From: Escherichia coli
GTDB taxonomy: Bacteria > Pseudomonadota > Gammaproteobacteria > Enterobacterales > Enterobacteriaceae
DNA length: 64,000 bases
Assembly (NCBI RefSeq): GCF_003018255.1
Contig: NZ_CP027440.1
Strand: one strand, 5' to 3'
The position numbers were made by a program, and so were the translations under genes. Numbering within the stretch: position 1 is the first letter of the stretch; each line of letters begins with the position of its first letter. The notes under the pieces are model-generated. The model made no database searches. It was given only the letters and a program-made list of their open reading frames with translations, and was not told where the DNA came from. Below, piece by piece: positions 33,637-46,031 of this stretch.

Positions 33637-33914
33637 CCGCATCTCCTGACTCAGCTAACAATAAAATTTTTGGCCTTTATAGGCGGTCCTGTTGGACAAC
33701 GGCGAACAGTATAACCGAATCATTGTGTGATAACAGGTCTTGACAAAGGAATTTACGCAAACGATTACCTTCAGGCTACGCAAGGCTTTGGAGAATAAAG
33801 AGCTTGCAACCGGAAACGGATTTCTTTTCAGGTTTGTGATGCAAATTTTTCACTTCATCACATTCTTTCTGAAAAACACCAAAGAACCATTTACATTGCA
33901 GGGCTATTTTTTAT

Positions 33915-35598: not shown

Positions 35599-36933
35599 TC
35601 ATTCCTTGAAATCGTTTGCATCCAGCTCGTGTCGGGAAAGCAGTTTATAAAATTCTGTCCGGTTGCGCCCCGCCATTCTCGCCGCGTGGGTGACGTTGCC
35701 TTTGGTGATTTGCAGCAGCTTACGCAAATAGTTGAGTTCAAAATGATTACGTGCCTCAACAAAGGTTGGCAGCGCCGTGTTTTCGCCCTCCAGCGCCTGC
35801 TCTACTAATGCATCGCTAATCACCGGAGATGAGGTCAGCGCCACGCACTGTTCAATCACGTTGACCAACTGGCGTACATTACCCGGCCAGCTAGCGGTCA
35901 TCAGGCGTTTCATCGCATCGGTGGAGAACGCGCGGACAAACGGTTTATGTCGCTCTGCCGCCTGGCGCAACAGGTGATTTGCCAGTAGCGGAATGTCTTC
36001 TGTGCGCTCTGCCAGAGCCGGAATTTTCAGGCTGACAACGTTGAGGCGGTAATAGAGATCTTCACGGAATTCCCCGCGCGCCATCGCTTTTGGCAGGTCG
36101 CGGTGAGTGGCGGAAATAATCCGCACGTCGATATCAATATCGCGGTTACTGCCCAGCGGGCGCACTTTACGCTCCTGCAACACACGCAGCAGTTTGACCT
36201 GCAACGGTGCAGGCATATCGCCAATCTCATCGAGAAATAGCGTACCGCCTTCCGCCGCCTGGAATAAACCTTCGCGATTGCTGACAGCGCCAGTAAACGC
36301 GCCACGCGCATGACCAAACAGCTCCGACTCCAGCAATTGCTCGGGCAATGCACCACAGTTAATAGCAATAAATGGTTTGCTATTGCGCGGGCTGGCGTTG
36401 TGGATAGCCTGGGCGAAAATCTCTTTCCCGGTGCCGCTCTGACCGTTAATCAAAACGCTAACGTCTGATTGCGCCACCAGCCGCGCCTGTTCCAGCAAAC
36501 GCAGCATCAGCGGGCTGCGGGTGACAATCGCCTCGCGCCAGCGTTCATCGGTGGCTGGCGCGGATTGTTCCAGCGCATCGTCAATTGCCTGATATAGCGC
36601 GTCTTTATCGACAGGCTTGGTGAGGAAACTGAACACTCCCTGCTGTGTTGCAGCAACGGCATCGGGAATAGAACCATGTGCGGTAAGAATAATTACCGGC
36701 ATTCCCGGCTGCACTTTCTGGATTTCAGCAAACAGCTGCATACCATCCATTTCATCCATCCGCAGGTCGCTGATAACTAAATCTACTTTTTCGCGATTCA
36801 GTACCCGTAATCCTTCAGCACCACTTTCCGCCGTGACCACGCTGTAGCCTTCGCTGGTCAGGCGCAGGCCAAGCAGTTTCAGCAATCCCGGATCGTCATC
36901 GACCAGTAATAAATGCGCAGGTTTATGGCTCAT
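35599..36933 (-). CDS. glrR: sigma54-dependent response regulator GlrR
   Basis: ORF track 35599..37035; start moved to ATG at 36931-36933 ([14 protein letters not shown]...), 444 aa; receiver domain, AAA+ sigma54-interaction domain (GESGTGKE-like, GAFTGA), C-terminal HTH. Confidence 0.95.
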
Positions 36934-39784: not shown

Positions 39785-42700
39785 TTACCCCAACTGCTTA
39801 CGTGCATTGCGGAAAATACGCATCCACGGCCCATCCTCGCCCCAGTTTTCCGGATGCCAGGAGTTGCTGACAGTACGGAAAACACGTTCCGGGTGCGGCA
39901 TCATAATGGTGACTCGACCACTTTCAGTCGTGACTGCCGTAATACCATTCGGAGAACCGTTCGGGTTAGCCGGGTAGGTTTCAGTGACTTTGCCGAAGTT
40001 ATCGACATAGCGCAGTGCCACCAGCCCTTTGCTTTCCAGTGCCGCCAGATGCGCCGCATCACGCACTTCCACGCGCCCTTCGCCATGAGAGACAGCAATC
40101 GGCATTTGCGAGCCCACCATCCCCTGCAACAGCAGAGACGGGCTTTGGGTTACTTCAACCAGGCTGAAACGCGCTTCAAAGCGATCGGAGGTATTGCGCA
40201 CAAAACGTGGCCACAACTCACTACCTGGGATCAGTTCGCGTAGGTTAGACATCATCTGGCAACCGTTACATACCCCCAGCGCCAGCGTTTGCGGACGGTG
40301 GAAGAAGGTTGCAAACTCATCGCGTACACGGTCATTGAACAGGATAGACTTCGCCCAGCCTTCACCAGCACCCAGCACGTCACCGTAGGAGAATCCACCG
40401 CACGCTACCAGAGCGTGGAAATCCTCCAGGCCCGTGCGTCCAGCCAGCAGGTCGCTCATATGCACATCGATTGCATCGAAGCCTGCACGGTGGAAAGCTG
40501 CCGCCATTTCAACATGCGAGTTCACCCCCTGCTCACGCAGCACGGCAACTTTCGGACGCGCACCAGTGGCAATATACGGTGCTGCCACATCTTCGTTGAT
40601 ATCGAACGACAGTTTCACATTCAGGCCCGGATCGGCGTCGTTTGATTTCGCCTGGTGCTCCTGATCGGCACACTCCGGGTTGTCACGCAGGCGCTGCATC
40701 TGCCAGGTAGTTTCTGCCCACCAGACACGCAACGTAGTGCGGCTTTCGCTGAATACAGTCTGCCCGTTGGCGGTAATCACAAAACGGTCACCGGAAACCG
40801 CCTGCCCTACATAATGGACGCAATCCGCAAGCCCATGCTGTGCCAGTACCGCTTCAACGGCTTCACGGTCAGCGGCACGAACCTGAATCACCGCACCCAG
40901 TTCTTCGTTAAACAACGCCGCCAGGCGATCGTCACCCAGAGAGGCGATATCCGCGTCAATGCCGCAATGACCAGCAAAGGCCATTTCCGCCAGCGTTACC
41001 AGCAGGCCGCCATCAGAGCGGTCGTGATACGCCAGCAGCTTACGCTGTGCAACCAGCGCCTGAATCGCGTCATAGAAGCCTTTCAGTTGCGCGACATCGC
41101 GTACATCTGCCGGTTTGTCGCCAAGCTGACGATAAACCTGCGCCAGCGCCGTTGCGCCCAGCGCGTTATTGCCTTTGCCCAAATCAATCAGCAGCAGTGC
41201 GTTATCTTCGGTAGAAAGCTGTGGCGTGATGGTGTGACGTACATCTTCCACGCGGGCAAATGCAGAAATCACCAGCGACAGCGGCGACGTCATTTCGCGC
41301 TCTTCGTTACCTTCCTGCCAACGGGTTTTCATCGACATAGAGTCTTTACCCACCGGGATCGTCAGGCCCAGCGCCGGACAAAGTTCTTCACCCACGGCTT
41401 TAACGGCTTCATACAGGCCTGCATCTTCACCAGGGTGGCCTGCCGCCGCCATCCAGTTGGCGGAAAGTTTAATGCGTTTGATATCGCCAATTTGTGTTGC
41501 GGCGATGTTGGTTAACGCTTCACCGACCGCCAGACGGGCAGAAGCGGCGAAATCCAGCAGCGCAACCGGCGCACGCTCGCCAATCGCCATCGCTTCACCG
41601 TAGTAGCTATCGAGGCTGGCGGTAGTGACCGCGCAGTTAGCGACCGGCACCTGCCACGGACCCACCATCTGATCGCGCGCCACCATGCCGGTTACGCTGC
41701 GGTCACCAATGGTCACCAGGAAAGTTTTCTCCGCCACGGTCGGCAGGTGCAGCACGCGTTTCACCGCGTCAGCAATGGTAATCCCTTCACGAACCAGCGC
41801 ATCACCCTTCGCTTTCAGCGTTTGTACTTCGCGGGTCATCTTCGGCGTTTTACCAAGCAGTACGTCCAGCGGCAGATCGATCGGCTGATTATCAAAATGA
41901 CGATCGTGCAAAGAAAGATGCAGTTCTTCGGTCGCTTCACCAATCACCGCGTATGGCGCGCGCTCACGCTTACACAGTTCGTCAAACAGCGGTAACTGAT
42001 CGGCAGCAACTGCCAGCACGTAGCGTTCCTGGGATTCGTTACACCAGATTTCCAGCGGGCTCATGCCCGGTTCGTCGCTCAGGATATCGCGCAGTTCGAA
42101 TTTACCGCCGCGCCCGCCGTCGCTCACCAGTTCCGGCATGGCGTTAGAAAGACCGCCTGCGCCAACGTCGTGGATAAACAGGATTGGGTTGGCATCACCA
42201 AGCTGCCAGCAACGGTCGATCACTTCCTGGCAGCGACGCTCCATCTCCGGGTTGTCGCGCTGTACGGAAGCGAAGTCGAGGTCGGCATCAGACTGACCAG
42301 ACGCCATGGAAGACGCCGCGCCGCCGCCAAGACCGATGTTCATTGCCGGGCCGCCGAGAACGACCAGCTTCGCACCAACGTTGATCTCGCCTTTTTGTAC
42401 GTGATCGGCACGAATGTTGCCGATCCCGCCCGCCAGCATGATCGGTTTGTGATAACCGCGCAGCTCTTCGCCATTGTGGCTGTTCACTTTTTCTTCATAA
42501 GTACGGAAGTAGCCATTCAGTGCCGGACGACCAAATTCGTTGTTAAACGCCGCACCGCCCAGCGGGCCTTCGGTCATGATGTCCAGCGCGGTAACAATGC
42601 GCTCAGGTTTACCGAAATCTTCTTCCCACGGCTGTTCGAAGCCAGGAATTCGCAGGTTGGACACGGAGAAACCGACCAGACCAGCTTTCGGCTTCGCGCC

Positions 42701-43672
42701 GCGCCCGGTGGCACCTTCATCGCGGATTTCACCGCCGGAACCGGTCGCCGCGCCCGGCCACGGAGAAATCGCCGTCGGGTGGTTGTGAGTTTCAACTTTC
42801 ATCAGGATATGCGCAGGTTCCTGATGGAAATCGTAGCGGCCCGTTTCGTGGTCAGCAAAGTAGCGGCCCACTTCAGAACCTTCCATTACGGCGGCGTTAT
42901 CTTTATAAGCAGAGAGAACGTGATCCGGCGTGGTTTCGAAGGTGTTTTTGATCATCTTAAACAGTGATTTCGGCTGCTGTTCACCATCGATAACCCAGTC
43001 GGCGTTAAAAATTTTGTGGCGGCAGTGCTCGGAGTTCGCCTGGGCAAACATATACAGTTCGATGTCGTTCGGGTTACGACCCAGCTTTGTGAAAGCATCC
43101 TGCAAATAGTCAATTTCATCTTCCGCCAGTGCCAGGCCAAGACGCAGGTTAGCGTCGATTAGCGCCTGACGGCCCTGCCCCAGCAAATCAACGCTGGTGA
43201 CCGGAGTCGGTTGATGGTGTGCAAACAGCTGCTCTGCATCATCTAAAGCAAAAAAGACCGTTTCCATCATGCGGTCGTGCAGTTCAGCGGTAACCTGCTG
43301 CCATTGTTCATTGGTCAGCGTACCGGCTTCTACATAGTAAGCAACGCCGCGCTCAAGGCGGTTTACCTGTTGTAGACCGCAATTATGGGCGATATCGGTC
43401 GCTTTCGAAGACCAGGGAGAGATGGTGCCAGGACGCGGGGTCACCAGCAGGAGTTTGCCTTGCGGGGCGTGGCTGGCGAGTGCCGGGCCATATTTCAGCA
43501 GGCGTTCAAGTTGTGCGTGCTCATCATCGTTTAACGGCGCATTGAGGTCAGCAAAATGGACATACTCGGCGTAAATAGTGTGAACCGGGAGCCTGGCAGC
43601 CTGAAAACGTGCCAGCAGTTTGTTGATTCGGAATGCCGACAATGCAGGCGAACCACGCAGAATTTCCATCAT
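39785..43672 (-). CDS. purL: phosphoribosylformylglycinamidine (FGAM) synthase
   Basis: ORF track, 1295 aa, [20 protein letters not shown]... Confidence 0.97.
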
Positions 43673-43748
43673 AAGTCTCTCGTCTTCTAAGCTTTCGGTG
43701 TACCCAAGGGGGGGAAACGGGCGTCATTATAAAGAATCTGATGCGCTG

Positions 43749-43764
43749 ACGAAACCGTTTGCGT
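43749..43764. promoter_or_regulatory. PurR operator (PUR box) upstream of purL
   Basis: acgaaaccgtttgcgt, a 16-bp near-palindrome matching the PurR box pattern ACGCAAAC-GTTTGCGT, about 80 bp upstream of the purL ATG. Confidence 0.6.
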
Positions 43765-43929
43765 GGAAATAAAATCACCATCGTGAATTAGCAACGCGTG
43801 CCGCCAATGGCTGTAATAAGTTGCCAACTGGCGCAGGTTTACGCAAAATGCCGCTCATTTATGAGTAAACCTTTCACTATTATTACGTTTTTTCAAGCTG
43901 GGACGCGCACGACACAGAGAATTAACTAA

Positions 43930-46031
<2,102 letters not shown>

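Follow-up and report, generated by a model that had tools for sequence, protein, structure and literature searches.

The 16-bp element at positions 43749-43764, between the divergent genes purL and mltF, is almost certainly the PurR operator of the purL promoter. It is one and the same as the PUR box documented for purL in E. coli (He et al. 1990; Meng et al. 1990; Cho et al. 2011), the 16-mer, the position and the gene all being identical, and it was already known. Positions are those of the window, that is, the whole 64-kb stretch of DNA that was analysed. A sequence-only reading had described a 16-bp near-palindrome at this place, had matched it to the PUR box and had located it in a divergent purL-mltF region. 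The position and the sequence of the near-palindrome are confirmed exactly, and its likeness to the PUR box is upheld by consensus, by matrix score and by identity with the ChIP-chip motif, as detailed below. When the element is compared with the mapped purL operator, the published motif falls at the equivalent coordinate, without displacement, and the identity of the two genes and their divergent layout agree with the RefSeq annotation.

As a textbook case of PurR control in E. coli since 1990, confirmed again at genome scale in 2011, the purL PUR box has little value as a discovery. The case is of interest in that a real operator could be located to the base from sequence alone, with the glyA and glnB-upstream sites of the same window serving as internal positive controls, and in that the comparative work charts the intergenic region between purL and mltF from end to end.

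The window comes from the E. coli chromosome. Of 5426 complete E. coli genomes, 5425 contain the segment 43400-44200 at an identity of at least 95%, and the genes annotated there are purL and mltF. The segment 43673-43929 is the entire divergent intergenic region (257 bp), and the minus-strand gene purL, which encodes FGAM synthase, has its ATG at 43672. For this part of the window, NC_000913.3 coordinates are obtained by adding 2,651,871 to the position. A single base of the intergenic region differs from MG1655 (43827, A in the window vs T in MG1655); it is 63 bp away from the PUR box and is the first spacer base past the predicted mltF -35.

The 16-mer and the published purL motif

On the plus strand the 16-mer reads acgaaaccgtttgcgt (also given as ACGAAACCGTTTGCGT), and in the sense of purL it reads ACGCAAACGGTTTCGT. 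It is near-palindromic: symmetry holds at 6 of the 8 positions of the half-site, the central CpG is intact, and no other site in the window departs from the perfect palindrome ACGCAAACGTTTGCGT by just 2 mismatches. The central CG occupies box positions 8-9, where the two halves ACGCAAAC and GGTTTCGT meet, and is invariant across all the 70 box-bearing loci described in the next section. In PurR-DNA structures, this central CpG is the site at which the hinge helices insert into the minor groove.

Agreement with the ChIP-derived consensus ACGNAAACGTTTGCNT extends to 13 of its 14 specified positions. With a weight matrix derived from the PurR motifs that Cho et al. 2011 list in their Table 1 (PMC3159470), 27 in number once purL is omitted, the box scores 22.37 bits (exact tail probability, P = 1.7e-8 per position), a score at which 0.002 sites are expected per 64-kb window, both strands considered. 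The known PurR sites, scored by leave-one-out, have a median of 18.8 bits and range from 6.7 to 25.3 bits. In the matrix ranking of the window the purL box comes second, behind the known glyA operator, and the next unrelated sequence scores at most 12 bits.

Published occupancy data lead to the same bases. The purL PurR motif of Cho et al. 2011 (PMC3159470, Table 1) is ACGAAACCGTTTGCGT, at 2,693,642-2,693,657 of U00096.2; it converts to 2,695,620-2,695,635 of NC_000913.3, which is window 43749-43764. The PurR region detected by ChIP-chip at purL (U00096.2 2,693,490-2,693,714; PMC3159470) maps to window 43597-43821 and has the PUR box inside it, the resolution of ChIP-chip being a few hundred bp and the placement of the motif inside the peak itself computational. 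The peak has a log2 value of 1.88 with adenine and was undetected without adenine (PMC3159470, Table 1); it was assigned to purL only, a previously characterised PurR target that is repressed by PurR-hypoxanthine (PMC3159470). Our own full-text literature search for the purL promoter together with PurR, or for the 16-mer itself, gave no match. He and co-workers are said to have reported in 1990 that PurR binds a 16-bp promoter-overlapping operator at each pur locus, purL included, and that a purL-lacZ fusion is repressed by purR, the repression of pur-lacZ fusions ranging from roughly 5- to 17-fold.

Conservation and layout of the purL promoter

We collected 80 loci by scanning one genome per species with the N-terminal 150 aa of PurL as query. 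They come mainly from the Enterobacterales, plus Vibrionaceae, Shewanella and Pseudoalteromonas, and the divergent mltF-purL arrangement is retained in 78 of them. Scored with the purL-free matrix, 70 of the 80 loci have a box scoring 18.8 bits or more within 400 nt upstream of purL, the best scores of control 400-nt coding blocks being mostly below 11 bits. The box reads ACGCAAACGGTTTCGT in 48 of the 70 loci, GCGCAAACGGTTTCGT in 18, ACGCAAACGGTTACGT in 3 and GCGCAAACGGTTGCGT in 1. The ten box-negative loci are six Pseudoalteromonas, two Shewanella, one stinkbug-symbiont Pantoea and one contig that has just 27 nt upstream of the gene, too little for a verdict.

The symbiont, Pantoea sp. Nvir (locus L065), has a reduced genome and lives with Nezara viridula. 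Its purL has neither a PUR box nor an mltF neighbour, and it is the sole locus of the Enterobacterales with adequate upstream sequence in which both are missing. This double absence fits a loss of regulation in a symbiont whose genome is reduced.

The full intergenic region of 27 Enterobacterales species was also aligned with MAFFT, unanchored (hereafter, the 27-species alignment). Discrete conserved islands are separated by variable stretches, and the PUR box is one of these islands, with 15 of its 16 positions invariant; other islands are given in Table 1. A 51-nt segment, which runs from the -10 through the box to the AT-rich block, is the same in 5402 of 5425 E. coli genomes, and the one variant that was inspected is changed at spacer base 43746, outside the box.

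Table 1. Features of the purL-mltF region, and the glyA operator, in window coordinates
Feature	Position	Strand	Sequence or detail	Basis
purL coding sequence (regulated gene)	39785-43672	minus	1295 aa	ORF list and RefSeq annotation
purL ribosome-binding region	43676-43684	minus	GACGAGAGA	Invariant block in the 27-species alignment
GC-rich discriminator with T-run/C-run	43708-43725	minus	GACGCCC discriminator; GTTTCCCCCCC	Conserved block
Putative purL transcription start	C 43719 or G 43718	minus		7-8 nt past the -10
Predicted purL -10	43726-43731	minus	TATAAT	Sequence; invariant in the 27-species alignment
Putative weak purL -35	43749-43754	minus	TTTCGT, 17-bp spacer	Spacing to the -10
PUR box (purL PurR operator)	43749-43764	minus	ACGCAAACGGTTTCGT	Sequence, ChIP-chip motif identity, matrix score, conservation
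AT-rich block	43766-43776	minus	GATTTTATTTC; about -58 to -47	Directly upstream of the box
Predicted mltF promoter	43821-43849	plus	TTGCCA-17-CAAAAT	Promoter scan
mltF start and ribosome-binding site	43917-43932			Island in the 27-species alignment
mltF	43930-45486	plus	TTG start at 43930	RefSeq annotation
glyA PurR operator	33755-33770		ACGCAAACGATTACCT, reverse complement AGGTAATCGTTTGCGT	Top matrix match in the window

The spacing between the box and the predicted purL -10 is as constant as the box. It is exactly 17 nt to a TATAAT in 67 of the 70 loci, and 2 more have TATACT. The promoter scan passed over this -10, as its rule calls for a stronger -35: the hexamer at the appropriate spacing, TTTCGT, agrees with TTGACA at 2 of 6 positions, and it sits within the half of the PUR box that faces the -10. 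Numbered from the predicted -10, the box would span about -46/-45 to -31/-30. As it ends 17 nt upstream of TATAAT, it would cover the -35 region, in an overlap that is probably one of position, given the poor 2/6 hexamer. The placement expected for repression of purL, which the sequence-only reading had invoked, thus fits a box standing 17 nt upstream of an invariant TATAAT and over the predicted -35 region. The purL start is absent from the supplements of five transcription-start and transcriptome studies (PMC10301672, PMC4681348, PMC7132871, PMC3415461 and PMC4782308).

The AT-rich block directly upstream of the box is conserved within the Enterobacteriaceae, and other families are AT-rich at the same place. 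It may be a UP-element-like sequence that compensates for the weak -35. Read on the plus strand, the bases of this block also offer a -10-like TAAAAT.

These elements suggest how repression could operate. When hypoxanthine or guanine is abundant, a corepressor-bound dimer of PurR, a member of the LacI/GalR family, would bind ACGCAAACGGTTTCGT. Since the box spans the -35 region and holds the weak -35 itself, the bound repressor would compete with RNA polymerase for the contacts made by sigma region 4 and the alpha-CTD; the polymerase would be excluded from the -35 and the upstream contacts, and initiation at purL would be blocked, by promoter occlusion. Apart from the position of the box, this is how the pur regulon is known to work. 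The occlusion step and the exact position of the start are what we infer in this scheme.

Other readings of the box

As the box lies within an intergenic region shared by two divergent genes, the operator could also, or instead, govern mltF, and a weak plus-strand promoter-like match (CTGACG-18-TAAAAT, 43746-43775) does overlap it. We regard such a role as highly improbable. A conserved mltF promoter is found elsewhere, at 43821-43849, its GTTGC and CAAAAT being invariant in the 27 species, whereas the match overlapping the box is not conserved beyond the Enterobacteriaceae; as a candidate mltF promoter, the latter was rejected in favour of the conserved pair. The ChIP-chip peak, too, was assigned to purL only (PMC3159470). 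Finally, the box is 57 bp from the mltF -35 and, relative to the predicted start of mltF, at about -92 to -107, a distance upstream that makes control of mltF by the PUR box unlikely.

Even less probable is that the box is bound mainly by another regulator of the LacI/GalR family, such as RbsR, CytR or GalR/GalS, and that PurR is not the physiological regulator of purL. The operators of this family have in common a palindromic layout and a central CG, and GalR/GalS sites are hard to tell apart from PurR sites by energy calculations (PMC2577325). Against this stand the PurR enrichment seen here by ChIP-chip, which is adenine-dependent (PMC3159470), a score on a PurR-specific matrix that is high even among true PurR sites, the role of the gene in purine biosynthesis, and the literature, which already reports that purine repression of purL is lost in a purR deletion.

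We give the same very low credence to the idea that the 16-mer is kept mainly as a core promoter element, belonging to the -35/UP region, its likeness to a PUR box being secondary. The proximal half indeed overlaps the putative -35, and the non-consensus half-site GGTTTCGT is nearly invariant in the Enterobacterales, a hint that PurR binding may not be the sole constraint on it. But the -35 matches at 2 of 6 positions, and the consensus PUR half-site, TTGCGT, would make a better -35 than the sequence that is conserved. The distal half ACGCAAAC (about -46 to -38) shows the same degree of invariance and agrees with the PurR consensus at every position, and binding of PurR in vivo is documented (PMC3159470).

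That the element is a chance near-palindrome without function has a negligible probability: sites with up to 3 mismatches to a perfect palindrome are expected at 0.65 per window by shuffling, but the expectation at up to the observed 2 mismatches is about 0.017 per window, the matrix P value is that given above, the box is invariant over about 70 species while its flanks vary, and it lies in a region of ChIP occupancy (PMC3159470). All four readings are weak in the face of the ChIP data, the matrix score and the pattern of conservation.

Sequence past the -10 and comparison with known promoters

The conservation of the purL promoter extends past the -10. Over the 27 aligned Enterobacterales species, the block made of the GC-rich discriminator and the following T and C runs is as conserved as the operator and stands at a fixed distance; the conserved block cgcccGTTTtCCCC is seen both in a 71-sequence stack and in the 27-species alignment. 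The T/C run is GTTTTCCCC in most species, i.e. GTTT(T)CCCC, at the predicted start of the transcript, and it is retained despite a diverged discriminator in Photorhabdus, Providencia, Xenorhabdus and Moellerella. GC-rich discriminators are also present at purMN, cvpA-purF, purHD and purT (tgcgccg, gcgcccc, gcgggcg and gcgcgcg, respectively). We considered a T/C run common to the regulon and rejected it, as the run is absent at purMN, purF, purHD and purT, which share only the GC-rich discriminator.

The post -10 sequence could harbour a second, PurR-independent layer of control of the purL promoter, a proposal that we hold to be doubtful. On a speculative note, the GC-rich discriminator would fit a sensitivity to ppGpp/DksA. 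The T-run of purL, from the predicted +2, resembles the initially transcribed regions of UTP-sensitive promoters with reiterative transcription, e.g. carAB P1 and pyrBI. One might speculate, from this analogy, that UTP-sensitive reiterative transcription occurs at purL; if true, it would tie the output of purL to the levels of pyrimidine nucleotides. Our literature search returned no paper connecting purL with reiterative transcription, and nothing relevant on purL with ppGpp or the discriminator.

A riboswitch or leader structure in the 5' UTR of E. coli purL was rejected, as the sequence has no Rfam match at E <= 1 and no stable fold, folding less stably than its shuffles (z = +1.66). The 5' UTR varies in another respect. 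In many Enterobacteriaceae (L004, L006-L009, L012, L016, L017, L019, L025 and others), an insertion of about 11 nt gives rise to a GC-rich hairpin, e.g. AAGCGCC-TCA-GGCGCTT. The distance from the box to the ATG is 86-87 nt with the insertion vs 75-76 nt without it, and E. coli, E. albertii and some Citrobacter are among those without.

The closest comparison within the window is the glyA operator, which is included in the ChIP-chip table of Cho et al. 2011 (PMC3159470, Table 1). The glyA and purL sites both score high (22-23 bits) and appear in that same table, but glyA is a gene of one-carbon metabolism, and PurR was bound there with and without adenine, whereas it was bound at purL only with adenine (PMC3159470). 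The third-best locus of the window, TTGAAATCGTTTGCAT (35606-35621), reaches 12 bits, about 10 bits under purL and glyA. It falls within the final codons of glrR, 68-83 nt ahead of the start of glnB, and is probably the PurR site of glnB, a known PurR target that was missed by the ChIP-chip study (PMC3159470).

Among the operators of the purine genes, that of purF (cvpA-purF), the structural reference for PurR sites, has several traits in common with purL: the imperfect palindrome of 16 bp, the CpG at its centre, the ACGCAAAC half-site, an overlap with the promoter (at purL, the predicted one), and repression by PurR with hypoxanthine or guanine. The difference lies in the geometry. We compared purL with the MG1655 promoters of purMN, cvpA-purF, purHD, purEK and purT (L083-L087). 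At purMN, cvpA-purF, purHD and purT the box stands 0-8 nt upstream of the -10, as against 17 nt at purL, and purEK falls in between, its box being followed at about 15-16 nt by a -10-like hexamer. Unlike at purF, purMN, purHD and purT, the purL box covers only the -35 region and what lies upstream of it. Because of this difference in the distance from box to -10, the steric details of repression at purL may differ from those of the better-studied purF case.
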